From a virus (lineage: Duplodnaviria; Caudoviricetes): a stretch of DNA of 53,296 nucleotides. A program made the position numbers and the translations under genes. Below, one piece after another: positions 14,369 through 36,408 of the stretch. The DNA is taken from the IMG/VR virus record IMGVR_UViG_3300009566_000068, positions 1 to 53,296 of that record. The stretch is one strand, 5' to 3'. Within the stretch, counting starts at the first letter, position 1, and every line of letters starts with the position of its first letter. Under the pieces are notes generated by a model. It had not been told where the DNA came from and did no database searches. It worked only from the letters and a program-made list of their open reading frames with translations.

Positions 14369-14381
14369 GGCACCCTCCTTT

Positions 14382-14845: not shown

Positions 14846-15170
14846 TCGATCAATACGCTCGATTTTACGTTTGCTTCAAAACCGCCCTATTTATTTCGTT
14901 TTCAATCCCCGCCAATATAGAGATGGTGAGGGGTTACTCATGCCCGCCAGCCTGGTATTTGTAAGGGTTTGCGCTGATTTTGCGAACCCAATGATAGTAA
15001 GGGTTTACGCAGATCGTGTTTTTCATCCCCGCAAACATAGGATGGGTAAGGGACAGACGGCGTGTCAGGAAGGTCGCCACGCAACGATCTCATGCCCCCC
15101 CTTAGGATTATAAAGGGGTGGGTTACCTCGCTTTTCGTCCATTTGCTCATATTTGGCATGGTTTTTGTCC
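14846..15170. repeat. ~325-bp non-coding cassette, copy A
   Basis: Homologous to 30930-31254 at constant offset 16,084; intergenic. Confidence 0.9.
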
Positions 15171-15176
15171 GACCTT

Positions 15177-15491
15177 TTAATCCTCACTCAAGGTCACAAA
15201 GCTCTCGGCAACAACATTTACATTATTCCTGGGCGGGTCTTTGATCTTGTAAGTCGTGCCATTCACAAGAATCGTTTCACCCGGGAGCGCGGCGCCGATG
15301 TCGCTCGTGAGCGCCCGAATGTAAACGTCATATGTGCCGGGGCCTTCTTCCAACTCCATATGCTCTTTTTTAAAAAACACCGTGATCGTCACGGCCGGAC
15401 CTGTCGTCGGGGTGTAGACGGCACTCTGTGCGACACCGTCACTTAAGGCCTGGAGATAAAGCGTGGCGAGTTCCTGCTCCCATATGCCCAT
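15177..15491 (-). CDS. Head-tail joining protein (gpFII-like)
   Basis: 104 aa, 'AVYTP...PGETILVNGTTYKI' pattern. Confidence 0.65.
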   Translation of the reverse strand: MGIWEQELATLYLQALSDGVAQSAVYTPTTGPAVTITVFFKKEHMELEEGPGTYDVYIRALTSDIGAALPGETILVNGTTYKIKDPPRNNVNVVAESFVTLSED

Positions 15492-15925
15492 TAGTTCCTA
15501 CCCCTTAGATAATTCGCCTCTGCATTTCTGCGTAAAACAAGCCCTGGAAGCTTTTTGCCTCCGGCAAAGACCCACTTGACGATCTCCCGGATCGCTTCAT
15601 CCCAATCCTGCTGATTGATTCGCCGGCGCAAGGTGGAATACTTCAACCGGCCGCTCCCGAGATTGAAAACAAAGTCGATAATGGCCGCTTGGCGCTTATC
15701 ATTTTCGGTCCTGAGCACCGGGCAGATATTGAAGGCTCCGCGTTGAGCCTTGCGGAGATCCCCGTCAAGAACCGTCTCAGCCTCTCCAGGGGGCAAGGGG
15801 CGGACCGGCTCGCTAGCCTGGAAGGCGTGGCCCCATCCCGCTGTCCAGATACCTGCAGGGCATTTGTACGGCGCTTCTGAGTAGCCCTCGAACTGTTTGG
15901 CGAGATTGACTGCTATGGGATTCAT
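15491..15925 (-). CDS. Endolysin, GH24 lysozyme
   Basis: 'FEGYSEAPYKCPAGIWTAGWGH', 'FVFNLGSG', 'LPGLVLRRNAE'; start reassigned to ATG 15925 overlapping the holin stop. Confidence 0.9.
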   Translation of the reverse strand: MNPIAVNLAKQFEGYSEAPYKCPAGIWTAGWGHAFQASEPVRPLPPGEAETVLDGDLRKAQRGAFNICPVLRTENDKRQAAIIDFVFNLGSGRLKYSTLRRRINQQDWDEAIREIVKWVFAGGKKLPGLVLRRNAEANYLRGRN

Positions 15926-16401
15926 TTTTTTCTCAGAACCCTGTCGAGGAACCAGAAGTTGATGATGCCGGCGACAACAGCCTGTTCTTCGGCTCCGAAG
16001 CAGGCCAGAATAGCTGCCGGCAGGGCCGTTAAATTTGCTCCGCCTGCCTGCCACGCGGACACCATTCGGCAAACAATGACGCCCGGGTAAAGAATTACAA
16101 CCCATTGAATCGTAATCAGGGGGCGCATGAGGGCAGACATCGCATCAACCCATCTCACTCCGGTAGGTTGAGCTTGAGCTGCGAGCGCGGCCATAAGGGC
16201 ATCGAGCCCCTTGATTTCGTAATCGACACCCTTCGCCTCAAGCACCTGTGTCCCTTGGAGTTGTGCCATTTCTTTAGCCTTGTCCTGCATATCGAGTTCG
16301 TGCTTGCGCTCGTTTTTTTTGTCGAGATAACTGAAAAGCTCCGGAAACAGGCGCAGGGCCCCACCTAAAAGACCGCCCAAAATAGTCGTAATCGGTTCCA
16401 T
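15922..16401 (-). CDS. Putative holin
   Basis: Hydrophobic segments, 'RPLIT' and 'IINFWFLDR' motifs of 3TM holin-like proteins; adjacent to lysozyme. Confidence 0.65.
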   Translation of the reverse strand: MEPITTILGGLLGGALRLFPELFSYLDKKNERKHELDMQDKAKEMAQLQGTQVLEAKGVDYEIKGLDALMAALAAQAQPTGVRWVDAMSALMRPLITIQWVVILYPGVIVCRMVSAWQAGGANLTALPAAILACFGAEEQAVVAGIINFWFLDRVLRKK

Positions 16402-16418
16402 AGCCTCCCCATTAAAAG

Positions 16419-16649
16419 TTATTTAAAAAGTCGTTGGGTAAAAAATGCGATCATCCCGCCAATGACTCCGGAAATTGCGGCAATAGACGTATCGAACTTT
16501 TTTCTGAGATCAAATTTCCGCTCCAATGTTTTCACATTGGTTTCAAGGGTAGTCATTTTTAGATTGGATGATATTGCGCAATCATACAGGACATTGAGCT
16601 TGGAGCTGACGTCCATGCCCTCAAACGTTTCGCGGGATATTCCGTTCAT
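16419..16649 (-). CDS. Small coiled-coil plus TM protein (lysis accessory-like)
   Basis: C-terminal hydrophobic helix; first gene of the lysis cluster. Confidence 0.5.
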   Translation of the reverse strand: MNGISRETFEGMDVSSKLNVLYDCAISSNLKMTTLETNVKTLERKFDLRKKFDTSIAAISGVIGGMIAFFTQRLFK

Positions 16650-16681
16650 GCCCCTTCCCTTTCAAATTCAGCTTCAGCTTT

Positions 16682-16712
16682 AAAAAAAGCCCCTCCCCTT
16701 TCAGGGAGGGGC
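16682..16712 (-). terminator. Intrinsic terminator after major capsid
   Basis: GCCCCTCCC/GGGAGGGGC stem plus U7 on the - strand. Confidence 0.85.
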
Positions 16713-16719
16713 GCCAGGA

Positions 16720-17718
16720 TCAGGTATGAATGTTGCTGAAAAGGTAAGTGCAGGCCGCGGCTATGTCGCTAACGACGGCTCCCGCATCGTTTTGCGAGGC
16801 GATATACGCTTCGTCCACATGGTGGCGAACACGTATAACATCGCTCCTGCGGGAATCGTCGCGGTAGGACTCGACAAGGGCGTTCTCAGGGCTGTCCTCG
16901 GTCCACAGGAAGGTGCGACCAACACCGGGCTGAGTGATATCGTCGCCTCTGCTGATCTTTACCAGTGATGCGTATTCGTAATTCCAGACGTCGGTTATCG
17001 TCGCCGCCTTGTTGCGTTTAGCGGAATCGTAAACCGATCCACCGATAATGACCTCCGGTACATCAAACACGGCCGCAAGTTGGGCACTCGTCATCTTATT
17101 GATGTCCAGGCCGGGAAAGGTGTATTTTAGACGGTCGACGATCTGATCGCAGTTTTTGAGATCCTCGAAAGTCGTCCAAGATATGACCAGAGCATCAGGC
17201 AGCATGCCGCACTGGAGACGGAAAGCGGCCTTTCCATTCTTTACATCCGTAATCGGTTTCGCGGTGGCCGGGACATTCCATTCGACGGAGACCGCGTGTG
17301 GCGTGAATCGATTCGGATTGAAAATCCTGTCGGCGATTCGCTTTTCCTGAGAGCGCAGGATGATATTGAGCGCCCGCTGAGTCGCAATCCTGTCGGCCAG
17401 ACCGGGAGAGCGACGGTCGAGGTTCTTGCGCTCGCTGTCGTCGATCGGTTCTTCCCATCCTTTTTCTGAGGTCGAGTATTTGCCGGCCTCATATTCCCAA
17501 TCGCCCCTGTTGTATTTACCTCTCGGCGCCCTGTTGACATCCTGGATCTTCAACAGCACTTCTTTCGGGATGACGGAATAGGTCGATGACATATCCGCTA
17601 CAGTAAAAATCGGCATCAATTGGAGGCCAATATATCCCATGGAGGGTCCCTCGAAAAACTCGAGGACCGTCACCCCAAGATCCGGCCTGTAAATAGTTGT
17701 TCCAGTTGCAGGTCTCAT
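16720..17718 (-). CDS. Major capsid protein
   Basis: 332 aa after the decoration gene; strong RBS; followed by a terminator; gpE-like pattern. Confidence 0.8.
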   Translation of the reverse strand: MRPATGTTIYRPDLGVTVLEFFEGPSMGYIGLQLMPIFTVADMSSTYSVIPKEVLLKIQDVNRAPRGKYNRGDWEYEAGKYSTSEKGWEEPIDDSERKNLDRRSPGLADRIATQRALNIILRSQEKRIADRIFNPNRFTPHAVSVEWNVPATAKPITDVKNGKAAFRLQCGMLPDALVISWTTFEDLKNCDQIVDRLKYTFPGLDINKMTSAQLAAVFDVPEVIIGGSVYDSAKRNKAATITDVWNYEYASLVKISRGDDITQPGVGRTFLWTEDSPENALVESYRDDSRRSDVIRVRHHVDEAYIASQNDAGAVVSDIAAACTYLFSNIHT

Positions 17719-17766
17719 ATTTTTTACTCCTCCGTTTCGTTATTTAAGGGCCGGTCTGGTCCCATG

Positions 17767-18726
17767 TTACGAGGTCAAAATTTTCCTCTTGTATTCAACC
17801 CATGCGCCGTAGATGTAAACGGTATCTCCATCATTGGTCCCGCCCAGGGTAAGAACGGCCGTTATCGCTCCCGGAGAGGCGAGGAGACCATCAAGGCCGC
17901 AGGTAAAGACAAGCTCGGTACCAGCGGCAACGATCGCCTGTGCAGCGGTGTCCTGAATATCGGCATTTGCAACATCACCGGCCGCGACCGGGAAGACCTC
18001 GCAATCGAGCGTAAGAGTATCGGCATCTGCATCCTTGCCAGACAGGACGTGAACGGTGAGATCCGCGGTCACGTCGATGTCCTGGGGAAGGGGCACGGAG
18101 AACGCCAGGGCCTCGCCGGAAGTGCAATTGACCGGAATTTCGATGACCATCTCTTTATTGGCGAGCTGCGCGTATCCGGCAACCGTCGTCGCCTGTTTGG
18201 TCAGAGCTGTACCGTCCTCCATGGTGATCGCACCCAGCGGGACCGGCACGCTCGCCTGGATGGATTTAATGTGCTGATAGATTTCAGCAATCGCTGCTTC
18301 CACGGTTGTCTGCGCGGTAAAGCCTCCGGAATCGAGAAGGCTGACGGTTACGGCGGTCGTCGACTTCACGTTCCAGAGAGCTGCTTCGATTATCGCCCCA
18401 TCGACTGCCGCTTCGAGCGAGATGCCCTGGGCGGTTCCGCTCGAAGCATCGCTTACCTTGCCATCGGCTGCACCGTAAAGAACTGTACCCCTGGCAATCG
18501 AGGCACTGACCGCGCACTCGATGTCGAAAGTCCCTGGGAAATTAATGAGACGGATCGCAATCAGCTCGCCGGAAGCAACACCGTATTCGGTCACGCCAAT
18601 ATAATCTTCACCGGCATCCGCATACTCTACCTCAGGGGGATCAAGCACTGTTCCCGCTTTGATCTTGACGCGCCTTCTTTTTTCCAGCGCCTCACCCGCA
18701 TAAAAGGTTTTGATTCCTTCGTTCAT
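17767..18726 (-). CDS. Capsid decoration/cement protein (DUF2190-like) with C-terminal extension
   Basis: N-terminal 'AGEALEKRRRVK...IGVTE...LYGAADGKV...GISLEAA.DG.IIE'. Confidence 0.7.
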   Translation of the reverse strand: MNEGIKTFYAGEALEKRRRVKIKAGTVLDPPEVEYADAGEDYIGVTEYGVASGELIAIRLINFPGTFDIECAVSASIARGTVLYGAADGKVSDASSGTAQGISLEAAVDGAIIEAALWNVKSTTAVTVSLLDSGGFTAQTTVEAAIAEIYQHIKSIQASVPVPLGAITMEDGTALTKQATTVAGYAQLANKEMVIEIPVNCTSGEALAFSVPLPQDIDVTADLTVHVLSGKDADADTLTLDCEVFPVAAGDVANADIQDTAAQAIVAAGTELVFTCGLDGLLASPGAITAVLTLGGTNDGDTVYIYGAWVEYKRKILTS

Positions 18727-18779
18727 ATTTTTTCCTCCTGTGGAGATCTATGATCGTTTTTGTCCACCAGCAATCCAGG

Positions 18780-19262
18780 TTATTTCTTCTGAACGCTTAC
18801 CAGCCACTTCTCATGAGCTTCCGGATAGAGCGCCTGAACGGCCTCGATCGCAGCGCCCTTTGTTACCTTGTGCAAAAGCTGGTATTCGCTCACCATTGTC
18901 GTGAAATCCTTTTCGCCCGCGGTACCCGCTCCGGCACCCGATCCCGGATTATCCGGACCAGCGGCTTTGATCGCGGCAAGCGCGACCTCTCGTGCCTTCT
19001 TCTCAGCATCATCCTCTTTCGCGGCAACGGGGTTGAGCTCGCGGTAGGCCTGGAACTGCTCTACGGTGGTTCCCGTCTCGACGAGCTTTTTGAATTTGTC
19101 CCCGGCTTCGGCGCCGAACTGTATGGAAACAAGGCCGGTAATCCTCAGCCTCTCTCCGTTTACTGCTTCCACCTTCACGCCGTTGATAGCAGCCTCTTTG
19201 ATCTGGTTAACCAACTCCGGATACGCTGCCGTCAGTTGTTCTGTGTTGATAATCTTATCCAT
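18780..19262 (-). CDS. Nested scaffolding protein (Nu3-like internal start)
   Basis: In-frame ATG at 19262 with AAGGAG RBS (19269-19274) after the protease domain. Confidence 0.65.
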   Translation of the reverse strand: MDKIINTEQLTAAYPELVNQIKEAAINGVKVEAVNGERLRITGLVSIQFGAEAGDKFKKLVETGTTVEQFQAYRELNPVAAKEDDAEKKAREVALAAIKAAGPDNPGSGAGAGTAGEKDFTTMVSEYQLLHKVTKGAAIEAVQALYPEAHEKWLVSVQKK

Positions 19263-20147: not shown

Positions 20148-20156
20148 CGCGCTCTC

Positions 20157-22033: not shown

Positions 22034-22215
22034 ATGCGAACCTCGGCTTTATTTGGCACGGACGTTATCATGGGATTTCATGAGAAAATGCCGATTACGG
22101 CGCTTTTAGGTCTCTTTGGGGGGGCTTTTATACCGCGTTTGGGTCTTATTTTTCTTGACAGGGGTTTTTTGAGATGTTCCGGAGCGGGATAAACCGCCCC
22201 GGAACAGAGGTAGGA

Positions 22216-22554
22216 TTACAGCTCGGGGACTTTGATCCCCAGGTGAGATTCGATCCATTCGGCTACGAGCCGACGATGACAGTCCTCGCCGGGACGCTCG
22301 TAGCAGCAGAGGATGGAATCTTTCAGGTCCTCGTAAACCTTCGCCGGATCAAGCTTAGCAAGAACCTTTTCCCGGTACTCCTGGACATATGCGGACCAGG
22401 GAAGTCCGGCTTTTGACCGATTCAAAAGATCGGCAGAAGGAGCCAAAGCATAATAGCGACGGCCCGCGCCCCACCATCTCGGTGTATAGAGCGCAATGCT
22501 GACCGCCTTCGGGTCCGCAGCTGCGACTCTATTTGCAAAATATGATGTTTTCAA
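22216..22554 (-). CDS. DUF488-like protein
   Basis: 'TSYFA', 'LAPS', 'LCCYE...DCHRRLVAEW' motifs. Confidence 0.7.
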   Translation of the reverse strand: MKTSYFANRVAAADPKAVSIALYTPRWWGAGRRYYALAPSADLLNRSKAGLPWSAYVQEYREKVLAKLDPAKVYEDLKDSILCCYERPGEDCHRRLVAEWIESHLGIKVPEL

Positions 22555-22568
22555 ATCATGACCTCCTT

Positions 22569-22811
22569 TCAGTTTATCGGTTCACAATAAAAGCCCGATA
22601 CCCGGACTCGCTCGCCGTTATCCAACGCCTTCAAGTTGACCGTATGTATCCCCCTGGAGTATCGCTGATCCGGGGAGTCGCTTAACGGGAAAGACTCGAC
22701 AATGAATTTTCTGTACCTGTATCCCGGCGCGATCTCGCTGATTTTGACCACAACAATCTCGCCCAGGTTAGGGAGCTTCGAGTGATGCGTATTCGCAATC
22801 GGCGTCAGCAT
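22569..22811 (-). CDS. Hypothetical protein
   Basis: Probable start ATG 22811 overlapping the upstream stop. Confidence 0.45.
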   Translation of the reverse strand: MLTPIANTHHSKLPNLGEIVVVKISEIAPGYRYRKFIVESFPLSDSPDQRYSRGIHTVNLKALDNGERVRVSGFYCEPIN

Positions 22812-23059
22812 CGTATAGACTCTCTTCGGATTCCGTTCTTTCCCCAGGTATAAGTTTCTGTCAAGTCCGGTCCACCGGGCCACACTACGATCATGACCTT
22901 ACCTGTATATCCAGGACAGTCCGTGATGTAATTGTCAAAAACCGCGATACATGCGTCGATCACGACGAGGCCCGCATCGGCATTTCCACCCGCTTCCCGG
23001 ATTATAAATTCATATAATTCTCGTTTTTCCTCATGATTTGGTTCTCTTGGCTTTTTCAT
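22805..23059 (-). CDS. Hypothetical protein
   Basis: Strong RBS AAAGGAG; within operon. Confidence 0.6.
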   Translation of the reverse strand: MKKPREPNHEEKRELYEFIIREAGGNADAGLVVIDACIAVFDNYITDCPGYTGKVMIVVWPGGPDLTETYTWGKNGIRRESIRC

Positions 23060-23075
23060 AGTCTCCTTTCTCCTC

Positions 23076-24776
23076 CTAAGCCAAGATTTCCTGGGGAACC
23101 TTGCCAGCCAGGTCCGCGCCCGATTTTAGGATAATTTCAACAAGCTCCTTCTTCGAGCATTTTTCAAAGGCCTTGCGCCCGATCTTCTCAAGGTGCTTTT
23201 TTGCATTCTCGTCCTCGAAAATGCCGAGCTTCTTTCCAAAGGAGAGGATCTCCTTGATGGTCTTTTTATCCAGATACTCCGCATGGATCAGCCACTCTTT
23301 TTGCAGGTCAATTTCCAGGTGGGTAGCGACCAAACGACGACCTTTCGAACCGTAACCACCGCCGTGAACCTGACCTTCGAGCATTACCGACGTCGCGGCT
23401 TCTTTCAAGGCTTCCTGGAGTTCCGCAGTCCCCATCTTCTCGATTTTCGGCCACAATTTCTCATTATTGAAAAGGCAGTATCGCTCCGCCTTAACGCCAT
23501 GCTTTTCGGCAAACTCTTCTTTCAGAAAATGGAACCCATGGAACATCGAGGCCAGGATCAGCTTCAAGACTTTGTCATCACTTGCGGGGATTTCTTGGAG
23601 GACCTCGGGGATCCGCTTGTGGAAGAAAACCTCGCGGAAATAGTCGCCGTGCCATTCAACCCGCGGCACATCGGCTTCGGGCTCCTTGCCGCCTTTCGCT
23701 TTCGACTTGGTTTTTTCTATTGCCTCTGCCGTACGGCGCACCATGTCATAACAGGCCTTCGAACCTACACAGGATTGCTTCTTGTGGAGCTTACCCTCAA
23801 TATTGACAATGGAAACAAAGCTTTCGCAGGAAAAGCACTTCTCAACCGGATGGGCACCCCATTCTTCAAAATCATGGTGATCGCTCCAGTTAAGGGTATG
23901 CTCGAAGCGGACCCCGTTTGTTTTATGGGCTTTCCCGTAATTATTCCAGTTTGCAACCAGCCAGGACATCTGTTTTCCGGTGAAGCACTCGGGATCAAAA
24001 CAACACGCCTTGTCGAGCCCGGCGACTTCTTCAAATATCCCTTTCTGTACATCTGAGTTTTTCGGGCAATTCGCGCATTCGCCTTTGTCGAATTTTGCGC
24101 ATGACATTTTGAGAGTCCTGCTATTGATTTTAAATCTCAACCGGCTCACTGGAATCGCTTCGGGACCCGAATCGTAATAACTTGTAAATATGGAATCGAA
24201 AAACTCGAGGACTAACTTTTCATTGGGCAACCTGGAGAGCTGCTCACAATGTCCGAATTTGATCTTGCCTTTCTCCCAAGATTTCAGCACTTTCGCGGGA
24301 AGCTTGAGGACCTGCAGACGGCGCTTGATGTATCCAGGGTGAATCCCACACCTTTGCGCGAGATCGGGAATCGCCTCGTCACCATGTCGCTGAATGTAAA
24401 GCTCATAACTGCGGGCCTCTTCCATCTCTGAGAGATCCTCGCGCTGCAGGTTTTCAATTGTCATGGCGTCAAAAGCCTCGTCGTCCGACATCTCCCGGAT
24501 TATTGCTGGGATCGTATGCGCCGACAGGCCTCCGTTGGCATTTGCAACCTCGCAGGATGCGCGGAAACGGCGCTCGCCGGCAATGATCTCATAGGGAATT
24601 TTCTCTTTTTTCTTTTTCTGCGGTCTGACCAAGATCGGCTCAAGGACGCCCTTCGTGCGGATCGATTCGACCAGATCATCAAATTTCTTACCAGAAAAAT
24701 TCTTCCTTGGGTTCAAGGGGTTTGCCTTTAACTGGTCCAGCTGTATCATCTGAAATGTGCCTTCGTTCATTTTCAA
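23076..24776 (-). CDS. ParB/Spo0J-family protein with long Cys-rich C-terminal region
   Basis: 'NPRK', 'IIAGERRFRA', 'ENLQREDL', HTH; CxxC clusters. Confidence 0.9.
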   Translation of the reverse strand: MKMNEGTFQMIQLDQLKANPLNPRKNFSGKKFDDLVESIRTKGVLEPILVRPQKKKKEKIPYEIIAGERRFRASCEVANANGGLSAHTIPAIIREMSDDEAFDAMTIENLQREDLSEMEEARSYELYIQRHGDEAIPDLAQRCGIHPGYIKRRLQVLKLPAKVLKSWEKGKIKFGHCEQLSRLPNEKLVLEFFDSIFTSYYDSGPEAIPVSRLRFKINSRTLKMSCAKFDKGECANCPKNSDVQKGIFEEVAGLDKACCFDPECFTGKQMSWLVANWNNYGKAHKTNGVRFEHTLNWSDHHDFEEWGAHPVEKCFSCESFVSIVNIEGKLHKKQSCVGSKACYDMVRRTAEAIEKTKSKAKGGKEPEADVPRVEWHGDYFREVFFHKRIPEVLQEIPASDDKVLKLILASMFHGFHFLKEEFAEKHGVKAERYCLFNNEKLWPKIEKMGTAELQEALKEAATSVMLEGQVHGGGYGSKGRRLVATHLEIDLQKEWLIHAEYLDKKTIKEILSFGKKLGIFEDENAKKHLEKIGRKAFEKCSKKELVEIILKSGADLAGKVPQEILA

Positions 24777-24792
24777 TTCTCCTTTTCAATTT

Positions 24793-25668
24793 TTAGTGCG
24801 TTAATAGGGATGTCTGTTCAATCACTTCGCGGTTGCTCTCCGACTGCGTGAGGGCCCGCTTGATCTTGTTCAGGGAAATCATAATTTCATCAATTCGTCT
24901 GATGTTATCCTGAGTCGCTCCTTGCATGACATACGGCAGGACGGAAAGATCGTCCTGGTGAAACGATTTGCTGATTAGGTCGATTATCGAATCGAGCATC
25001 CGAGAGTATTTACCGTAAACCTCTTTATCCGCCTTGCTCGGCTCCGGCAAAAAGCTATGTTGCTCCTGGATATTGATCATTGCGTTTACCAGGGAGCGCA
25101 GCTTGTTATATGTTGGAACCTTGCCCGCGGAAATCTTGTCAAACAAGGCCCCCTGCAGCTCCCTCGGCAAACGGCTCATTTCCTGCGCTTGCGATGGATT
25201 GAGAAGACCGCGGAGCGTGTACTCCTGAAATGTCGGGGTGAGTTTGAGGATGTTCAGACGTTCCTGGATGCGCCAGCTCTGCTTGATTCCCATCTTGCGG
25301 GCAATTTCCTCTTGGCTCATCCCCATATCAATCAGGCCCTCGTAGGCTTTGGCCTCTTCCACGATGCTGAGGTCCTCGCGCTGCAGGTTCTCCAGGAGCG
25401 CGAGTTCCGCAACCTTCTTGTCGTCGGCTTCCAATATCCTGACCGGGACCTCTTTCACGCCGGCCAGGTTGCAAGCCCGCCAGCGACGCTCACCGGCAAT
25501 AATCATAAATCCGTTTTCCCTCTTAACCACGATCAGGGGCTCGAGGAGCCCGCTCTCCTTGATTGATTGCGCGAGTTCTTCGAGTTTGCCCTGGTCAAAA
25601 TGTTTGCGCGGCTGGTTCGGATTCGGATATACGCGGTCAATTTTCAAAGTTTTCATTTCACCCTCCAT
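24793..25668 (-). CDS. ParB/Spo0J-family protein
   Basis: 'PNPNQPRKHF', 'IIAGERRWRA', 'ENLQREDL', HTH 'SQEEIARKMG'. Confidence 0.92.
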   Translation of the reverse strand: MEGEMKTLKIDRVYPNPNQPRKHFDQGKLEELAQSIKESGLLEPLIVVKRENGFMIIAGERRWRACNLAGVKEVPVRILEADDKKVAELALLENLQREDLSIVEEAKAYEGLIDMGMSQEEIARKMGIKQSWRIQERLNILKLTPTFQEYTLRGLLNPSQAQEMSRLPRELQGALFDKISAGKVPTYNKLRSLVNAMINIQEQHSFLPEPSKADKEVYGKYSRMLDSIIDLISKSFHQDDLSVLPYVMQGATQDNIRRIDEIMISLNKIKRALTQSESNREVIEQTSLLTH

Positions 25669-25853
25669 TAAAACGAAAAGAAATTGAAGGTGTGCAAGGC
25701 TGTCTTGAACTTTCCATAGTTCCAGACTCCTGTGCCTCCGCGTGCCGCGATCTGAAAATATCTTTTCTCTCTATTTTTTCTTTTTCCTGGTTCAATAACG
25801 CGCCTGAGTTCAAAACAACTTGTAGACCGTAACACTTTTATTTTTTTCTGCAT
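25668..25853 (-). CDS. Small basic hypothetical protein (MQKKIKVL...)
   Basis: RBS AAGGAG before ATG 25853; TAATG overlap with the parB-like gene. Confidence 0.55.
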   Translation of the reverse strand: MQKKIKVLRSTSCFELRRVIEPGKRKNREKRYFQIAARGGTGVWNYGKFKTALHTFNFFSF

Positions 25854-25900
25854 ATTTAGCTCCTTATTTTTGCGTGTACCATGCGCAGCCCGGCGATTTT

Positions 25901-25987
25901 TTATTCGAATAAAACAGGTCCCATAACCATCATCCAAAATCCAAAGCCGACCAGGAAGGCAATCGCAAATTCGCCGACTGTTCTCAT
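25901..25987 (-). CDS. 28-aa hydrophobic micropeptide MRTVGEFAIAFLVGFGFWMMVMGPVLFE
   Basis: AAGGAGG RBS; ATGA overlap with the upstream peptide. Confidence 0.55.
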   Translation of the reverse strand: MRTVGEFAIAFLVGFGFWMMVMGPVLFE

Positions 25988-26061
25988 TTTCTGCCCTCCT
26001 TAACCACGTGATACAAAAAGACCACAATATAAACGACCGTGCTGAGCAGGATGACTTTCAT
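25984..26061 (-). CDS. 25-aa hydrophobic micropeptide MKVILLSTVVYIVVFLYHVVKEGRK
   Basis: ATGA overlaps at both ends. Confidence 0.5.
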   Translation of the reverse strand: MKVILLSTVVYIVVFLYHVVKEGRK

Positions 26062-26486
26062 GCTGCCCTCCGCTTGCCGAATCTGTCTTTAATGATACCG
26101 ATTGTCTCCGGCGCATAGTAAAGGTCCAGCTCAACTCCGCAGTCTATAAGGTCCGCGATGCTGATGTAGCCAAGCTCTGCGTTTTCGTGATCTCCGTTGA
26201 GACAAGCAAAGCCGAAGGCCTGGTGCTGTTCTGCCTCTTTGTCGCACTCAACGATGTACCAATCGGAAGCGCCCAAAAAGTAGTGGAGCGTGACCGGCGC
26301 CGCGTCGCCCATGCCGTCCGTATCGTAGGTAACAGGCATTTCCGCGATTTTCTTGTCGAGATCTCTTAAGAGGTCTTGGAAGAACCTTCCCTCCTGACCT
26401 CTACAATTCCACCGGAGCGCTGTCATTTGACTCGATCCAATAAACTGCCTCAAATCTGTTGACTTTTTTCCATCCTCTGTTACCAT
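26058..26486 (-). CDS. DUF2958-like protein
   Basis: 'HYFLGASDWYIVE...AFGFACL...ELGYISIADL...ELDLY' motif. Confidence 0.7.
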   Translation of the reverse strand: MVTEDGKKSTDLRQFIGSSQMTALRWNCRGQEGRFFQDLLRDLDKKIAEMPVTYDTDGMGDAAPVTLHYFLGASDWYIVECDKEAEQHQAFGFACLNGDHENAELGYISIADLIDCGVELDLYYAPETIGIIKDRFGKRRAA

Positions 26487-26558
26487 CTCCTTGCTCCTTT
26501 CTTTCGTAGGGGGTTAGTGTTCGGCCCTTCAAAGTTCACGGCTTTGAAGGGCCAGTTT

Positions 26559-26870
26559 TTAGATCAACCCAAGGGCCAGCATCCAGGAGGGACATCCGTC
26601 TGGTCCGCGGCCATCCAGATCAACCGGCTCGCCCCTCAGCGTCTCGCAAATACCGTCCGCTATCCAACTCCACAGCGTGTCCTCGTCGGGCGGGCGCTCA
26701 AAGCCGGTCAGGTATTTGTGGGCTTTAGTCACCGGAATGTAGAACTTTTTCTCACCGCACCAAACGGCTATCAAATGAGGATATTCTTGGGGATAGCTGA
26801 TCTGGTCAACCTTCGTTCCTTTTTTAAACTCCGCTCCGCTTTTCAACTTGACATCGTTTTCAAGGTTCAT
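26559..26870 (-). CDS. Hypothetical protein
   Basis: C-terminal 'DGICET..GE.V..DG..PDG.PSW.LALGLI'; ATGA coupling. Confidence 0.6.
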   Translation of the reverse strand: MNLENDVKLKSGAEFKKGTKVDQISYPQEYPHLIAVWCGEKKFYIPVTKAHKYLTGFERPPDEDTLWSWIADGICETLRGEPVDLDGRGPDGCPSWMLALGLI

Positions 26871-27076
26871 CGCTCCCTCCGTAAGACCTGCTGGATTTCA
26901 GCTTCCATCTTGAACAGGTAGGCGACCATCGAAACGCCAAAGTGCCAGGCCCGGTCCTCATGGTAGCTCTTGTCAGTTTTGACTCTCGACTTCTTTGCCA
27001 ACGCCTGATGAAAATCGGATTTCGCGGTCATCTCCGTCCGCTTTTTCGTGAAGTACTTAGCGACCGCTTCGCTCAT
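26867..27076 (-). CDS. Hypothetical protein
   Basis: RBS GGAGG; coupled to neighbours. Confidence 0.55.
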   Translation of the reverse strand: MSEAVAKYFTKKRTEMTAKSDFHQALAKKSRVKTDKSYHEDRAWHFGVSMVAYLFKMEAEIQQVLRRER

Positions 27077-27189
27077 TATTCTGTCTCCTCCTTTCCGTCC
27101 TCGCTTTCGATCATCGCGGCCAAGGCTTCATTCATTCCGAATTTCACCCAATCTCCTTCGTCCATGACATCAAACTTTTCCGCTTCCAT
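27076..27189 (-). CDS. 37-aa acidic peptide MEAEKFDVMDEGDWVKFGMNEALAAMIESEDGKEETE
   Basis: Double RBS AAGGAGAAAGGAG; TAATG overlap with the next gene. Confidence 0.55.
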   Translation of the reverse strand: MEAEKFDVMDEGDWVKFGMNEALAAMIESEDGKEETE

Positions 27190-27256
27190 CTTGATCTCCT
27201 TTCTCCTTGAATTTGTAATCTGTCCAGCTCACTGAGCTGGTCACATTCACAAACTC

Positions 27257-27304
27257 AAAAAAGAGAGGCTCTCCTCTGCCCTGGAGAGCCTCCGATTTTT
27301 TTTT
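27257..27304. terminator. Bidirectional intrinsic terminator
   Basis: GAGGCTCTCC/GGAGAGCCTC stem with A6 on the left and T9 on the right. Confidence 0.8.
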
Positions 27305-27714
27305 GAAGTTTTAGGTTCACGGGTGCCTAAATCCCGACAGGGTTCCTGGGTTGTCCTGAATCCCAACTCAACCCCTACACTCACGGTAAGGGCCAAGATT
27401 AACCGATTATCAAAACCATCGGTTTAAAGGTCTCAGCCTTTTTTCTGACCCGTCGGCCCCCCGAATTTCGCTTGAGGATGTTTTGAAGGTTGGCCCTGCT
27501 AAACTGTGAGAAGTATCCCACGGCGTAAATCTTGACGATTTTTATTGAGCTGACCAGGTGCAACCACAGCCCCATTAAAAAACCGGGTTTGGAAGGTATC
27601 AGATAAAAAGGTATGAGAAGGAACTGGGAGCTGGGTTGCTAACCCGCCGTCCGGCCTAACACCGGACTCAAAAAGCACGCGGCCTCCCTCTGAAATGAGC
27701 TAAGTTATTGATAT
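27257..27714 (-). ncRNA. Candidate ~450-nt structured RNA or leader
   Basis: Promoter upstream, terminator at end, many local and long-range helices. Confidence 0.5.
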
Positions 27715-27749
27715 GATTAGAACTTATAGGATTTTGAGGTATATAGCAA
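27701..27749 (-). promoter_or_regulatory. Sigma70-type promoter with adjacent IHF consensus site
   Basis: TTGCTA (27744-27749), 17 bp, TAAGTT (27721-27726); TATCAATAACTTA (27701-27713) matches WATCAANNNNTTR. Confidence 0.6.
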
Positions 27750-27866
27750 GGGAAAAATGCAATAATTTCGCATACTTAGCATTTTTTACTGCGGAAAAAA
27801 GAGGTCAATCGCAAGTTTGAGAGCCCCGCTGTATATGCTCCCGCTGTACGACGACCTCTGAATTTA

Positions 27867-28928
27867 CTATTTCTCGGATATTTCGATGAGTGCCTGGTCG
27901 AGATCGAGGCCGGCATCTGCCTTGTCTTTGAGGGCTTTGCGGAGGACCTTCGCCGTGTCCTTCTTGATCCGCTTACGCGTCGACCCCAGGTTGAATATGA
28001 TCGTATCCTCGACACCTTCCTCTATACCCTCCTGGATAGACGCGAGCTTGCCATCAAGGTATTCGCGGGCAACCTTCGCCAGCGCGAAAAACGCGATCGT
28101 CGAATTGATGATCTTCTGGTTCTGCTTAACGGCGATGATTCCGTCCAGGAGGTCGCTGTACTCGGAGATCCGGCCAGCCATCACGTTCTTGCTCTTGACC
28201 GATTCCAGGATGCCCTCGCAGATCGACTTCATCTGCTCGATCTCGTCCGGAAGAAACAGGAGCGCGATCTCCTTGAACAGCGGCCTCTGCTCCGCGATTG
28301 TCTTGAAATCGACATTCGTGAGCTTCTCGATCAGCTCGTTCGACAGGCCGGAATAGATGGAGGCCTCCAGGTCGTCAATTTCCATCCATAATTCTTTGAG
28401 GACCTGCTCGTCGTCCTGGCCGGCTATGGCGTTATGCGAGAGCTGGATCGCGATCTGACGCTGTTTCGAGAGCGGCTTGTCGATCAGAAGGACCAGGTTC
28501 TCCTGGATACCCGCGGCGATCGCGGCCTTGAGCCGGTGATTGCCGGAAAGGACCAGCAGGCGACCGTTCTCCTGGAGATAGCACAGCGGGAGCGATGTCA
28601 GCCCACCGTCGTTTTTGATGTTTCGGGTGAGCGCCTCGAACTGCTCTTTTTTCATGAACCGCGCGTTCTTCTCGAGGAAGTCAATCTCCCGCGCTTTTGC
28701 AAGATAGAGCTTATAAGGTATTTTCCCGGCCAGCCGCGAATTAAACTCGTCAAGCACCACCTGGGTGTCCCGTGCCGGCATGGGTGCGCTGCCATCGATT
28801 AACAGCTGACCCGCGTCCGGCAGCGGCATCACTGTCAATACTCCCTCCTGTCCGACTGGAACCTCCGTCCCGGTCATAGTCTCGCCTGTCCCTTCACTCG
28901 TTCTCATTTTTTGTATTTTTTTACCCAT
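27867..28928 (-). CDS. ParB/Srx N-terminal domain protein partnered with the DNA-modification gene
   Basis: 'NARFM', 'VLSGNHRLKAA', 'QLSHNAIAGQDD'. Confidence 0.75.
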   Translation of the reverse strand: MGKKIQKMRTSEGTGETMTGTEVPVGQEGVLTVMPLPDAGQLLIDGSAPMPARDTQVVLDEFNSRLAGKIPYKLYLAKAREIDFLEKNARFMKKEQFEALTRNIKNDGGLTSLPLCYLQENGRLLVLSGNHRLKAAIAAGIQENLVLLIDKPLSKQRQIAIQLSHNAIAGQDDEQVLKELWMEIDDLEASIYSGLSNELIEKLTNVDFKTIAEQRPLFKEIALLFLPDEIEQMKSICEGILESVKSKNVMAGRISEYSDLLDGIIAVKQNQKIINSTIAFFALAKVAREYLDGKLASIQEGIEEGVEDTIIFNLGSTRKRIKKDTAKVLRKALKDKADAGLDLDQALIEISEK

Positions 28929-30205
28929 GTCTGCACAGCCTCCTTACAGCTTAATTCCCCGCACTCGGTCATATATTGCAGAAAGCCCTCGCCCCGCTTC
29001 TGGAGCTTGTACACGCCTCGGTATTTCATCGAAACAGGTTTGTCCGTGAACGCCGTCGTCAGGATGAAATCGACGGCCTGGATAAACTTCGCCTTGAGGA
29101 TCTCCTGCAGCTCCGTCGTTTTCGTCGCGAGCAGGACGAGCTTCGAGAGCTTCTCTATAGGGTGCGCGATAATGAAATCCGAAAGCAGGTAAACGCCCCG
29201 CGTGGACTTGTCCTGGTCCATTCCATAGCGGATCACGTCGAACAGCAGAAAGCCGAACAGGTAGCCATCGAGCAACACCATGAGCGGCGAGAGCCCGGTC
29301 GTATGGTCGATTCCTTTTTTCAGGAACACGTTCTTATAATAATTCAGCCGGGAGTTATCGGTCTTTTTGAAAGTCAAGATGCTCTCCCTCGTGATCTCGT
29401 AATCGTCGGGGAGATAGGCGATGTCGCCCTTGACGCTTTTCGAGGAAGGCATGACATACGATTTCCTAAACGGCAAATTGCTGTATAAATAGACGTTCTT
29501 GAGCCGCCCCGTTTTAACGACGGCAAACAGGCCGTCCTCCTCGCGGTCATAGTCAGCCAAGTAAAGGAAATCGCCCTGGCGCATGAAGCTCACAGTCTCC
29601 TCGTATCGCTCCTTGGTCAGAATCTCGTATTCCGGTGCATCCCAGGAGAGTATCTGGTCCAGCCTCGCGTATAATTTCTCATACCCGCCGACATAGGTCG
29701 GCAGAAACGCGATTCGGATAAATTCCGAACCCAAGCCGCGGTACAGGTCGTGAACGTCCATCATCGTATAATTCTCAATCTTGATCGCGTCGAGCGACGC
29801 CTTGATCCGGACGCATGACTGTTCCCAGAATCGGGAGAACTCCTTACGGTAATGGTCAAATAAACGGATCTGCGCCAGGTTGTTCCGCTTCTCGTTTTTC
29901 AGCATCTCGAAAAGCAGAAAGACCGCGCTGATTCGCGAGATCCCATCCACGGCGATATATGGCTCAAGCCAATTATATCCCGGCTCCTTGATCTCGAGAC
30001 GCATCTCCTTGCCGGCAAGGTAATTGCCCATAAGCGACGAATAAAGCGCGATGTCGTTTGACCAGATTTGGCAACCCATTCCCTGGAGGATCTGCTCGAC
30101 GGTGAAATTACCGGAGCACCCGACACATATTTTTCGATCTTTGAACAGGTGCTTCTCGGTGAACAGCACGCTCCGAATTTTCGAGTTTATTGATCCAACA
30201 AACAT
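28904..30205 (-). CDS. Putative DNA-modification enzyme: Dam-like MTase fold plus GNAT (Mom-like) domain
   Basis: 'CVGCSGNFTVE..SNDIALYS', 'FLPTYVGGYE'; C-terminal 'YLLSDF..KLSKLVL..TTAFTDKPVSMKYRG'. Confidence 0.65.
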   Translation of the reverse strand: MFVGSINSKIRSVLFTEKHLFKDRKICVGCSGNFTVEQILQGMGCQIWSNDIALYSSLMGNYLAGKEMRLEIKEPGYNWLEPYIAVDGISRISAVFLLFEMLKNEKRNNLAQIRLFDHYRKEFSRFWEQSCVRIKASLDAIKIENYTMMDVHDLYRGLGSEFIRIAFLPTYVGGYEKLYARLDQILSWDAPEYEILTKERYEETVSFMRQGDFLYLADYDREEDGLFAVVKTGRLKNVYLYSNLPFRKSYVMPSSKSVKGDIAYLPDDYEITRESILTFKKTDNSRLNYYKNVFLKKGIDHTTGLSPLMVLLDGYLFGFLLFDVIRYGMDQDKSTRGVYLLSDFIIAHPIEKLSKLVLLATKTTELQEILKAKFIQAVDFILTTAFTDKPVSMKYRGVYKLQKRGEGFLQYMTECGELSCKEAVQTWVKKYKK

Positions 30206-30495
30206 TTGCTTTCTCCCTTTGCAAACAAGTCATTTCGCAAATCAACAAAGCTCTCGGGTGTCCAGAATACTTTCCATCCCGACTTGAATTTTCCGGTCCG
30301 CTCGCATGACGATTGACCAGGACGCTCGATCTTTGCAACAACCGCCTTTGCAATCGCGAGCTTGTTGCGACGGAAAACAATCTCATCACCTTCCTTGCAC
30401 TTCGGCGGAAACCGGAATGACCAGAATTCCCATGATCCCGGAGGCGGCTCTTTCCAAAAATGAGACATCGCATGATCAGGCACATTGATATTCAT
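30187..30495 (-). CDS. Hypothetical protein (possibly PUA/ASCH-like)
   Basis: 'EFWSFR.PP..K.GD.I.F' pattern; coupled in operon. Confidence 0.45.
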   Translation of the reverse strand: MNINVPDHAMSHFWKEPPPGSWEFWSFRFPPKCKEGDEIVFRRNKLAIAKAVVAKIERPGQSSCERTGKFKSGWKVFWTPESFVDLRNDLFAKGESKCLLDQ

Positions 30496-30854
30496 TTCCT
30501 CAGCCTCTGCAATCTGTCAATTTCGGCAGCGATGAGCGCCCCAGCCTTCGCAAGATCGCGCATCCGTTTTTCCCTGCTTAGATTTTCTCCCGGGATCAAT
30601 TTGCCGCGGCTGGTACGATGACGTTTATCACAATCTGCATCCCAATCCTCCGGCCATGGATCAACAAAATAAATTGTCGCATAATCGTCCCTCTGGAAAA
30701 AAATCGGCTCCGGAGCCGCATAGCAGATTGCCGCGCAAACCAGCTCGCACGCGGTATGGTCGTCATCATGCGAATTGTCAAAACCCTCATCCTCGATTTG
30801 TCTCAATCGCTCATCAGTAATCATCTCGATTCCCGTTTTCATTTTTCCCTCCAC
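30492..30854 (-). CDS. Conserved phage protein
   Basis: 'ERLRQIEDEG...HDD...EL..AA.CYA...RDL.KAGALIAAEIDRL' signature. Confidence 0.7.
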   Translation of the reverse strand: MEGKMKTGIEMITDERLRQIEDEGFDNSHDDDHTACELVCAAICYAAPEPIFFQRDDYATIYFVDPWPEDWDADCDKRHRTSRGKLIPGENLSREKRMRDLAKAGALIAAEIDRLQRLRK

Positions 30855-30929
30855 CTATCTTTTTCTCTCTATGCTCCCATTCCTTGGCATGGTTTTTGTC
30901 CAGGGTCATTTGAGCGAAATCGCTTTTTT

Positions 30930-31254
30930 TCGTTCATTACGCTCGATTTTACGCATTTTTGAAAATCTCATTTTGCTATTCGTTTTCAATTCCCGCCAAT
31001 GTAGAGATGGTAAGGGTTTACGCGCGCCCGCTATCCCAGGAATAGTAAGGGGTTGCGGAGATGTCTAAAGCCCAATGATATTAATGATTTACTCTCGTTT
31101 CGTTTTTCGTCCCCGCAAGCGTAGAGTGGGTAAGGGATAGACGGCGCACGAGGATGGTCGCTACGCAACGATCTCGACCGCCCCCTTATGATTATAAAGG
31201 GGTGGCACACAGCGGTTTTCGTGCTTTTTGCCATATTTGGCATGATATTTGTCC
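30930..31254. repeat. ~325-bp non-coding cassette, copy B
   Basis: Homologous to 14846-15170; an extra exact copy of the 18-bp end motif lies at 30884-30901. Confidence 0.9.
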
Positions 31255-36398: not shown

Positions 36399-36408
36399 AA
36401 TCCCCTCC

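Follow-up and report, generated by a model that had tools for sequence, protein, structure and literature searches.

A rigid non-coding cassette in a Caudoviricetes genome as a candidate promoter-operator region

The stretch of DNA analysed here (the window, 53,296 nucleotides of a Caudoviricetes virus) carries two copies of a cassette of about 325 bp that most likely works as a protein-bound transcription switch and not as a recombination, partition or RNA element. Tentatively, we read it as a portable, activator-dependent promoter-operator that arrived with a cargo module and was duplicated ahead of the tail genes.

Two copies and their family

Copies A (14846-15170) and B (30930-31254) are in direct orientation, 16,084 bp apart, and align without a gap, with 246 of 325 positions identical. 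This agrees with the preliminary description of paired direct homologues with the same offset, whose hand count of 97/128 identities over the first 128 bp was reproduced exactly. BLAST within the record returned the second copy with E = 1.3e-63. Conserved blocks with variable spacers had also been described, and the copies share eight exact runs of 10-16 nt each with variable stretches between them. The blocks named at the time, GTCGCYACGCAACGATCTC, CCCCTT..ATTATAAAGGGG and TTGGCATG..TTTGTCC, were all found in copies A and B and, with up to 3 mismatches allowed, are absent from the rest of the window except for the 18-mer among them, which has a third exact copy at 30884-30901. Both copies occupy gaps between minus-strand genes. 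Copy A is flanked by a head-tail attachment gene (15177-15491) and the tail-terminator gene, and copy B follows terL (31532-33487) and a 91-aa HTH gene. The closest relative of copy A is copy B, and vice versa, so the cassette appears to have been duplicated in the window's phage.

On the gene strand, the layout runs from a 17-bp site GGACAAAAACCATGCCA through TATAnT, a GGCGACC box and four repeats of about 36 bp to a terminal GCGTA box. The elements are:

14846..15170, minus strand: cassette copy A, Infernal model R1 E = 8.8e-82, reading 15170 to 14846 with the flanking genes
30930..31254, minus strand: cassette copy B, R1 E = 7.7e-80, between the 91-aa HTH gene, which follows terL, and the accessory block
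15154..15170, minus strand: upstream 17-bp site of copy A, GGACAAAAACCATGCCA, 0 mismatches, conserved in homologues
31238..31254, minus strand: upstream 17-bp site of copy B, differing from the consensus at 2 positions
30885..30901, minus strand: second 17-bp site, downstream of copy B, identical to the copy A site
15107..15112, minus strand: TATAAT box of copy A, 41 bp downstream of the 17-mer, a putative -10
31191..31196, minus strand: TATAAT box of copy B, with the same alignment evidence
15072..15091, minus strand: conserved box of copy A, GGTCGCCACGCAACGATCTC on the plus strand, GGYGAC core kept in the family (copy B equivalent, 31156-31175)
14898..15052, minus strand: four repeats of about 35-36 bp in copy A (14898-14932, 14933-14967, 14968-15003 and 15018-15052), core AAACCCTTAC on the gene strand
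30982..31136, minus strand: four repeats in copy B, matching those of copy A
14854..14869, minus strand: terminal box of copy A, TACGCTCGATTTTACG on the plus strand, 28 nt ahead of the tail-terminator gene start (copy B equivalent, 30938-30953)
22054..22069, minus strand: possible degenerate fourth 17-mer, 20 nt ahead of a head-tail adaptor gene

Each internal repeat is an imperfect palindrome. The three IHF-like boxes noted earlier belong to these four repeats, but none matches the IHF consensus exactly: all five exact matches in the window fall outside copies A and B. The near-palindrome noted earlier is present in both copies but is not family-wide; the homologues keep one arm and the central TATAnT only, and the arm adjoining TATAnT is not conserved among the 12 aligned sequences. 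The GGYGAC-core box contains GATC in 5 of 7 sequences.

The cassette belongs to a family. At least 11 more loci were found, some in viral contigs and others in prophage-like stretches of genomes of the Smithella/Syntrophaceae type, which are syntrophic bacteria. Full-length nhmmer/Infernal matches with E values of 1e-14 to 1e-85 were obtained for L133, L132, L134, L143, L151, L167/L170, L168/L176, L173, L178 and L224, and a partial match only for L148. No cassette match was found in 72,556 plasmid records. The homologues are only 47-70% identical, yet their length is kept. From the 17-mer to the terminal box, four of seven sequences measure 317, 317, 319 and 318 bp and the rest 300, 332 and about 320 bp, and copy A aligns to L134 (62% identity) with 1 gap column in 319. 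The 17-mer stands 41-42 bp from the TATA box in all six sequences measured, and the repeat cores lie at about +58, +107, +143 and +178 from that box. TATA is invariant in the 12 aligned sequences, with T at the sixth position in 11 of them and A, C or T at the fifth. The layout is thus rigid and conserved. The earlier view that copies differing by substitution but not in length point to a nucleoprotein site under spacing constraint is supported, because the homologues keep their span and the 41-42-bp spacing despite their divergence.

With up to 2 mismatches, the 17-mer had 12 matches in five genomes, 6 of them at cassettes. Four of the others were examined and fall in apparently coding sequence without a cassette, so the 17-mer does not appear to be a host regulon site.

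The cassette is non-coding, as first described. Mismatches between copies A and B are spread over the codon positions as 29/25/25, and dN/dS is 0.72-1.14 across all six frames. Since the overlapping ORFs show no purifying selection in their own frame (omega 1.04), the objection that they are ordinary paralogous genes does not apply.

Neighbouring genes, recombination and partition

The cassette is usually found with terL and a small HTH_17 gene on its upstream side and a cargo of DAM-like/GNAT, ParB and DUF488 genes downstream. An HTH_17-type (excisionase-fold) gene lies directly upstream in 7 of 13 loci; the HTH neighbour of the second subfamily also gave a Pfam HTH_17 match. The neighbours in the window are:

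31260..31535, minus strand: 91-aa winged-helix (excisionase/MerR-like) gene, stop codon 5 nt before copy B
22216..30854, minus strand: accessory cargo downstream of copy B
within 22216..30854, minus strand: cargo genes of 120 aa and 102 aa
28904-30205, minus strand: DAM-like/GNAT, accessory cargo
27867-28928, minus strand: ParB-fold protein of 353 aa, accessory cargo
24793-25668, minus strand: ParB of 291 aa, accessory cargo
23076-24776, minus strand: ParB of 566 aa, accessory cargo
22216-22554, minus strand: DUF488, accessory cargo
14382..14825, minus strand: tail-terminator gene, first gene downstream of copy A

The DAM-like/GNAT gene comes directly next in L133, L151, L167 and L168 and two small genes later at copy B, and ParB and DUF488 lie downstream of copy B, L133, L143 and L178. 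Elsewhere the cassette is followed by tail genes (copy A), primase and SNF2 helicase genes (L134) or a 123-aa gene and an integrase gene (L148). The direction from 17-mer to repeats is the gene direction in all loci with identifiable neighbours, which amounts to about four independent contexts only (the module, copy A, L134 and L148) and would arise by chance in about 1 in 8 cases.

Across the module-bearing phages terL is 34-40% identical, whereas DAM-like/GNAT is 65-69% and the cassette 59-63% identical. The more closely related L145, whose terL and tail terminator are 59% and 51% identical to those of the window, has the cassette at neither position. These comparisons indicate that the cassette is portable. 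No trans-acting factor common to every cassette was found; HTH_17 is also present without a cassette in L145 and L121, and neither HTH subfamily was found in G089 with the queries used.

A recombination or insertion site would have the 17-mers as att-like cores or cargo-exchange boundaries and the repeats as integrase arm-type or accessory sites, with the excisionase-like HTH protein possibly helping. We regard this as fairly unlikely. Direct 17-mers do flank the cassette in four loci, with a downstream one at copy B and likewise in L133, L132 and L143, and L173 has an extra copy upstream. The 17-mer downstream of copy B matches the copy A site at 17 of 17 positions, against 76% identity for the cassettes overall. 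The cassette also stands at the edge of cargo that differs between phages, often next to the excisionase-fold gene, and adjoins an integrase in L148. However, copy A, L134, L151, L167 and L178 have a single 17-mer, which by eye lacks inverted core-type symmetry, and no integrase gene of the window is within 10 kb. Nor is there a significant copy at the far end of the cargo; the degenerate match at 22054..22069 is not significant alone, and by our own estimate a match of this kind is expected by chance. To our knowledge, a fixed distance to an invariant TATAnT is not a feature of att sites. Paired recombination sites excising a 16-kb circle had been suggested in particular. This circle is not a function of the family, because the cassette is single-copy in the three other genomes searched whole and absent at both L145 positions; the same single-copy homologues leave every reading that requires a pair unsupported.

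ParB loading is another reading, with the cassette as a loading or centromere-like array through which orphan ParB-fold proteins would exert KorB-like long-range control or partition. Placing repeat arrays ahead of par operons is a familiar arrangement. Downstream of copy B there are three ParB-fold genes, two of which encode Spo0J-like proteins (E = 5e-39 and 5e-29) with the ParB HTH domain, and a ParB of 59-68% identity follows the cassette in L133, L143 and L178. A further point in its favour is that orphan ParBs are frequent in prophages, where their role is unknown (PMC12704722). Against these points, the window has no parS-like site at up to 3 mismatches, there is no ParA, tail genes follow copy A, and no ParB was found in the examined stretches of L132, L134, L148 and L167. 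G083 and G089 carry the cassette with only weak chromosomal-type ParB matches. With no canonical parS, and cassettes in these two where no close phage-type ParB was found, the loading sites proposed earlier were not confirmed and an array for ParB is decidedly unlikely.

The four direct repeats and the A/T-rich stretch would also suit an iteron-type replication origin or another purely architectural site (packaging, gyrase), and L134 and L178 lie near primase/helicase genes. This we hold to be highly improbable: a separate cluster of iterons and inverted repeats (36407-36673) adjoins the window's primase-helicase gene, a terS homologue lies upstream of terL as usual, and two origins or cos sites 16 kb apart in a late region would be odd.

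Predicted transcription from the cassette

As a promoter-operator, each cassette would be the control region of a leftward (minus-strand) transcription unit and travel in an accessory 'moron-like' module. The invariant TATAnT would be the -10 element for the host RNA polymerase. A sigma-70 promoter scan of both cassette regions found none. Among seven sequences, no -35 hexamer scored above 2/6 at 17-19 bp spacing (two score 4/6 at 16 bp), and the extended -10 TG is absent. Because there is no -35 element, initiation is predicted to depend on a factor bound at the 17-bp site, fixed 41-42 bp upstream of TATAnT; with a start about 7 nt past the box, this site would be centred near -62.

About 250 bp would separate the predicted start from the first gene, with the GGCGACC box, the four phased repeats and, in some loci, the second 17-mer, which at copy B (30885..30901) lies about 42 nt ahead of the ATG of the 120-aa gene. 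At the corresponding distance from the second 17-mers there is no TATA box. Some 250 bp of conserved repeats downstream of a start are not explained by a promoter. The box, the repeats and any second 17-mer may be an operator array for a DNA-binding protein, probably phage-encoded, whose higher-order complex on this DNA would hold the downstream genes silent until the proper moment. The duplication would then have put the tail operon under the same control as the cargo.

An enhancer-type promoter had been among the first suggestions, and in the sense of activator dependence it comes near to the promoter-operator reading. In its sigma-54 form it would be an antisense promoter on the plus strand, firing away from the cassette, with the 17-mer as the -24/-12 element and the four repeats as upstream activator sites. 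Sigma-54 is widely used in bacteria of the cassette-bearing group. On the plus strand, the 17-mer has the -24 GG and, at the -12 distance, the TG end of a T-rich stretch, with the repeats 100-260 bp farther upstream. None of ten family 17-mers, however, has the C of the -12 GC (T in 9, G in 1), and the consensus misses all three sites at up to 2 mismatches. Such a promoter would point away from the genes and read antisense into the upstream gene in every context, the second 17-mers have coding sequence at the enhancer position, and the window encodes no PF00158 activator domain. We consider the sigma-54 form very unlikely.

No terminator was found between the upstream gene and the cassette, which therefore does not strictly require a promoter of its own. 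This would also fit a cis-acting leader RNA without secondary structure, whose transcription would begin upstream or at the TATA box and whose four repeats would bind an RNA-binding regulator of antitermination, stability or translation. Its orientation is locked to the downstream genes, and the repeats are located past the putative start and before the first gene. A leader of this kind is nevertheless unlikely. There is no Rfam match, no intrinsic terminator lies within the cassette on the gene strand, and imperfect palindromic DNA repeats are more typical of sites for dimeric DNA-binding proteins. Nor was any conserved secondary structure found, and the two strands behaved alike in the folding tests. 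Single-sequence z-scores were +0.22, -1.93, +0.28 and -1.42, none of them significant. Two-sequence folds had 8 and 2 compensatory pairs, no more than column shuffles give (means 6.9 and 4.3). Six sequences gave consensus folds of -8.4 and -12.9 kcal/mol on the two strands, and twelve gave -7.13 kcal/mol with 19 pairs, 1 compensatory pair and a covariation term of +0.84. The structured RNA suggested earlier thus found no covariation support with 2, 6 or 12 sequences.

Comparison with known systems

Like the P2/186 Ogr-type and Mu C-dependent late promoters, which are activator-dependent promoters of temperate phages, the cassette is present as several homologous non-coding regions of a single genome that precede different late operons, with a good putative -10, no -35 and a conserved candidate factor site at a fixed upstream distance. 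Those regions, however, measure about 60-80 bp, whereas the cassette has about 320 bp with a conserved 250-bp array past the putative start, and no Ogr-, C- or Mor-like activator was identified for it.

AlpA/Q-type antitermination promoters likewise have a small excisionase/AlpA-fold HTH protein encoded beside the site. For AlpA, the element bound is placed between -35 and -10, with an intrinsic terminator after it (PMC9371919). The cassette differs in its conserved site 41-42 bp upstream of the TATA box and in having no terminator on the gene strand.

Frpo/ssi-type repeats, which precede anti-restriction genes in plasmid leading regions, are similar in being non-coding, about 300 nt long, orientation-locked, ahead of anti-defence-type genes and present in several copies per replicon. 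They fold as long single-strand hairpins, whereas the cassette has no significant fold (z of +0.3 to -1.9), its repeats are direct and not inverted, and the plasmid records gave no match.

The control region of Mu mom is a multi-site region ahead of a potentially harmful GNAT-fold DNA-modification gene, and GATC in the conserved box of 5 of 7 cassettes may be a further likeness. The two have no sequence similarity, and the cassette is found ahead of tail, replication and integrase genes as well. Morons, accessory transcription units complete in themselves and inserted among the core genes of a phage, share with the module the combination of cargo and its own upstream non-coding region, inserted here at the same backbone position in phages with terL genes only 34-40% identical. 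Promoters of morons tend to be short and do not form a conserved family, whereas the cassette is long, rigid and the most recognisable part of its module.

The twin copies

The window, a complete provirus record from IMG/VR with a length of 53,296 bp, has the following features.

Features of the provirus window
14846-15170, minus strand: copy A of the cassette, between the head-tail attachment gene (PF05354) and the tail-terminator gene (phrog_4204)
30930-31254, minus strand: copy B of the cassette, downstream of terS, terL (GpA type) and a 91-aa gene, ahead of the accessory block
15072-15091 and 31156-31175, minus strand: GATC-bearing box of each copy, a site shared with homologues
22216-30854, minus strand: accessory block after copy B, with 120-aa and 102-aa genes, a DAM-like/GNAT gene, a 353-aa ParB-fold protein, two HTH-bearing Spo0J-like ParBs and DUF488

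The two copies aligned without gaps at an offset of 16,084 bp, with 246 of 325 bases identical, and the hand count of 97/128 over the first 128 bp in the preliminary description was reproduced. Eight exact runs of 10-16 nt are separated by variable stretches. An 18-nt end motif occurs three times, at plus-strand positions 15153, 30884 and 31237. Since the minus strand carries all genes between about 2.3 and 41.5 kb, each cassette, read in gene direction, opens with the 18-nt end motif and finishes close to the gene that follows. The identity between copies A and B is 75%, compared with 59-63% to any other cassette member, which makes the twin state a duplication within the lineage of this phage.

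Ordinary genes in this place would have been betrayed by purifying selection on the overlapping 73-aa and 82-aa ORFs, as the preliminary description had pointed out; this selection was absent. The mismatches between the copies were distributed 29/25/25 over the codon positions, and dN/dS was 1.04 in the frame of the two ORFs and 0.72-1.14 across the six frames. With no codon periodicity and no purifying selection between the copies, a protein-coding gene was rejected. Just downstream of copy A, the minus-strand ORFs 14183-14518 and 14382-14825 overlap by 137 nt in different frames, and the start of one or the other may be miscalled.

The structured RNA considered in the preliminary description was not borne out. 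An Rfam scan of the cassettes gave no match at the gathering score (best E-values 1.5 and 5.4), and a tRNA search of them found none. With RNAalifold, the two copies had 8 compensatory pairs on the plus strand and 2 on the minus strand, within the range of column shuffles (means 6.9 and 4.3). The consensus energy of six members was -8.4 kcal/mol on one strand and -12.9 kcal/mol on the other, and that of twelve members was -7.13 kcal/mol with an unfavourable covariation term and one compensatory pair among 19. The cassettes fold alike on both strands, as expected for DNA palindromes and not for RNA. Single-sequence folding with RNA parameters gave z-scores of +0.22, -1.93, +0.28 and -1.42; with these values, and with a long stable hairpin absent, a Frpo-like single-strand promoter was rejected.

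Layout and distribution of the cassette family

On the gene strand the cassette opens with the 17-mer GGACAAAAACCATGCCA, present at ≤3 mismatches in 10 of 12 aligned members; locus L168 is without it and locus L224 is cut off. An A-rich variable stretch of 41-42 bp follows in all six sequences measured, and then the block CATATAnTCAYAAGGGG, where TATA is invariant (12/12), the sixth base is T in 11/12 and the fifth base varies. The GGYGAC box after it is preceded by GATC in five of seven sequences. This GATC is found in all three of the seven that have DAM-like/GNAT next, and is absent from L132 and L134. Then come four repeats, each about 36 bp long and an imperfect palindrome, whose core AAACCCTTAC is located at about +58, +107, +143 and +178 from the TATA box. 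The last parts are an A-rich stretch and a terminal GCGTA box. A second 17-mer lies downstream of the cassette in copy B, L133, L132 and L143, an extra one upstream in L173, and none in copy A, L134, L151, L167 and L178.

Four members have spans of 317, 317, 319 and 318 bp from the 17-mer to the terminal box, and two others have spans of 300 and 332 bp. Pairwise identity between loci is 47-70%, with very few gap columns (1 in 319 between copy A and L134). With the length kept at such identity, the earlier notion of a spacing-constrained nucleoprotein site was right in kind. One of its details did not hold: the near-palindrome is not kept as a palindrome among family members. For the IHF-like boxes, a scan for exact matches to the IHF consensus found five in the window and none in a cassette, where degenerate sites may still be present.

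Several known element classes were rejected. A template/variable repeat pair of a DGR does not agree with substitutions that, by eye, involve all bases; a CRISPR-like array does not agree with a 36-bp period that has no spacers; for a MITE, no terminal inverted repeats are visible by eye. A cos site is at odds with two direct copies at a distance of 16 kb, and terS is in its usual place.

When copy A was used as DNA query against 339 genomes from the class of a Smithella-type terL relative, seven gave a match at E ≤ 0.01, and three of these were verified by nhmmer as full-length cassettes (E = 4e-26 to 4e-35). The sequence-only Infernal model of the cassette, R1, matched 2/151 genomes in a class sample and 4/151 in an order sample, one of the latter already known; among 151 genomes sampled from the phylum, it returned only the known genome and one weak partial. 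Two family-derived patterns run over viral and genome collections added L151, L167/L170, L168/L176, L173, L178 and L224. A two-core pattern scan of genome contigs gave 104 stretches, mostly chance, and the cassette was present in 7 of 121 screened pattern-scan loci. Loci that may be the same DNA were merged (L149/L150 with L132, L170 with L167, L176 with L168, and L152/L153 with known loci), and the weak partial matches L144 (genome G264) and L158 (genome G415) were excluded from every count. The cassette-bearing contigs are labelled as Smithella, Syntrophaceae and 'delta proteobacterium'-type MAGs; two odd labels, Methanobacterium and Marinimicrobia, were taken to be binning noise.

By blastn, the cassette had no match among annotated phages (50,697 records) and plasmids (72,556 records). 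A description of it was not found in the literature on related topics, in searches that were not aimed at this sequence, so that it may be published. Two further motif patterns scanned before homologues were known gave nothing. An exact scan with the 20-nt box led to 18 viral loci, all of one unrelated coding family with a common stretch of only 23-25 nt. The 16-nt palindrome arm led to 8 loci in which the similarity ends there, and the 21-nt palindrome to one match within an ORF of 373 aa in an Ignavibacteria record, taken as chance. The search with the tail-terminator gene found one distant relative. For the 120-aa gene there are at least 476 relatives, and blastn and nhmmer detected the cassette in none of 80 fetched. 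It was also absent from terL relatives at 63-66% identity in the viral, metagenome and genome collections.

Gene neighbourhood and accessory block

The direction of the cassette is that of the genes in every locus with identifiable neighbours. Directly upstream, a small winged-helix gene was found in 7 of 13 loci (copy B, L133, L132, L143, L167, L168 and L224), and in L151 the place is taken by a 99-aa ORF. The winged-helix genes fall into two subfamilies, of which one matches Pfam HTH_17. In the fold search of the 91-aa protein there was no match at E ≤ 0.001, and the best by probability were a 6hn7 chain (0.93), RacA, TraN, TorI and mycobacteriophage Xis. We therefore call the predicted protein only a winged-helix of the excisionase/MerR kind, nothing narrower. 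Farther upstream, terL is present in six loci.

Downstream, DAM-like/GNAT follows directly in L133, L151, L167 and L168 and after two small genes in copy B. The cassette is followed by DUF488 and SAM synthetase in L132, by a 1182-aa protein, ParB and DUF488 in L143, and by ParB and DUF488 in L178. Primase and SNF2 helicase are downstream in L134, a 123-aa gene and integrase in L148, and the tail genes in copy A. The terL proteins of the cassette phages are 34-40% identical to that of the window, whereas identity reaches 57-74% for the cargo proteins of the accessory block; it is therefore the cargo, rather than the backbone, that the cassette accompanies. L145, more closely related to this phage (terL 59%, tail terminator 51% and HTH 51% identical), is without the cassette, with only 57 nt between its head-tail attachment and tail-terminator genes and none after the HTH gene. 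The HTH gene without a cassette is also seen in L121.

The accessory block of the window encodes three ParB-fold proteins and no ParA. Two of them are Spo0J-like with an HTH, and the 353-aa one matches phrog_7405. Together with an 'active DUF488-N3' protein and the DAM-like/GNAT (amidoligase-like) protein, the block looks like a DNA-modification or anti-defence module. The genes for the head-tail adaptor, portal, protease and capsid come after it. At its far edge, 20 nt before the head-tail adaptor gene, a degenerate 17-mer-like motif TGGCACGGACGTTATC is found on the plus strand at 22054-22069; alone, it is not significant. Within the block, a gap of about 790 bp (27077-27866) has no convincing ORF and divides the cargo into two units; a G+C-rich hairpin near 27255-27300 with A- and T-runs at its sides resembles a two-way terminator. 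In the right arm, two tyrosine-integrase genes on opposite strands (42013-43203 and 47061-48170) suggest a second integrated element or a composite provirus end. A CI-like repressor is encoded at 41532-42065.

Other phages have elements of their own in this region. L111, a terL relative with 66% identity, has a look-alike pair after terL on the gene strand (6222-6310 and 6600-6690), each consisting of a TGGCACG-containing motif, a multi-stem hairpin of about 85 nt and a T-run, with a small gene after each; these may be promoter-terminator or small-RNA units. In L121, another terL relative, the orthologous HTH gene is followed by a non-coding slot with four tandem 11-bp repeats AAATATACCCC (8477-8531, equal to 6477-6531 of L117). 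Repeat-bearing control DNA seems to reside quite generally in the slot after terL/HTH.

Possible functions of the cassette

These data show that non-coding, orientation-locked and spacing-constrained protein-recognition blocks head transcription units. The best reading of the sequence is a portable promoter-operator cassette, which we hold tentatively, at somewhat short of an even chance. With positions 1, 2 and 6 conserved and the fifth free to vary, the invariant TATAnT box has the signature expected of a sigma-70-type -10 hexamer on the gene strand. For the -35 hexamer, the best match was 0-2 of 6 in 5/7 sequences, and in the other two it was 4 of 6 at a spacing of 16 bp; the TG of an extended -10 was seen in none of the 7, and a simple sigma-70 consensus scan of both cassettes gave no sites. 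Since the -35 and the extended -10 are absent, the promoter, if it is one, must be factor-dependent. The obvious candidate for the factor site would be the 17-mer at its fixed distance of 41-42 bp upstream of the TATA box, and the four repeats with the second 17-mer would serve as an array of operators past the start. At ≤2 mismatches, the 17-mer had 12 matches in five genomes, six of them at cassettes, and four others that were examined lie in apparently coding sequence. On sequence grounds, the 17-mer is not a site of a host regulon.

The preliminary description had also proposed an enhancer-type promoter. In the sense of a sigma-54 (-24/-12) promoter on the opposite strand, the geometry fits and the GG of the -24 is present, but this reading fails. 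The C of the -12 GC is found in 0/10 family sites, the sigma-54 consensus at ≤2 mismatches misses all three window sites, the promoter would in each context face in the direction opposite to the downstream genes, and no PF00158 activator domain was found in the window.

A rival to the promoter-operator reading takes the repeats as a site for ParB (parS or centromere), akin to the ParB loading site suggested earlier. Phage-type ParB (59-68% identity) was found in three of five cassette genomes searched (G155, G323 and G264), which may be incomplete, and only weak matches in the possibly incomplete genomes G083 and G089. Strict co-occurrence with ParB was not seen in this set, and the parS consensus had no match in the window at ≤3 mismatches.

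The 17-mers that flank the cassette could serve as recombination sites. This possibility is kept alive, although the pairs are missing in half of the loci. Functions of paired cassettes, including the excision envisaged in the preliminary description, find no support in G083, G089 and G155, each of which has a single full copy when searched whole.

The four direct repeats would also suit a replication origin of the iteron type. There are two copies, both in the late region, and an origin at the cassette is unlikely because a separate iteron cluster (36407-36673) adjoins the primase-helicase gene. This cluster, a likely replication origin, lies just downstream of that gene (36749-39115) and has inverted GGTCAGGG-type repeats with arms of 29 nt, 90% complementary and 206 nt apart.

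An improbable but more far-reaching proposal is an assembly platform, a new nucleoprotein switch of phages. Orphan ParB-fold clamps or another cargo-encoded protein would load at the four phased repeats, be held between the 17-mers on either side, and from there spread or form loops. In that case a mobile DNA-modification/anti-defence module would come with a long-range silencer of its own, and the head, lysis and tail genes of this phage would be under the joint control of two platforms at a distance of 16 kb.

The twin copies are thus real, and they belong to a new family. The family consists of previously unannotated, length-locked non-coding phage elements of about 320 bp that are recognisable by sequence, and its members stand at the head of a mobile accessory module with DAM-like/GNAT, ParB-fold proteins, DUF488 and SAM synthetase. 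Its hosts are prophages of syntrophic Deltaproteobacteria-type bacteria, in which the control of phage genes is almost uncharted. If the promoter-operator reading is true, the cassette would be a compact, portable and tightly regulated expression unit, and a handle on the timing of expression of orphan ParB and DUF488 genes in phages. If it fails, the rigid layout of four repeats and two sites points to a nucleoprotein machine of another type. Among known systems, AlpA-type antitermination (PMC9371919) differs from the cassette in the placement of its binding element and has a layout that, unlike the cassette, needs a terminator.
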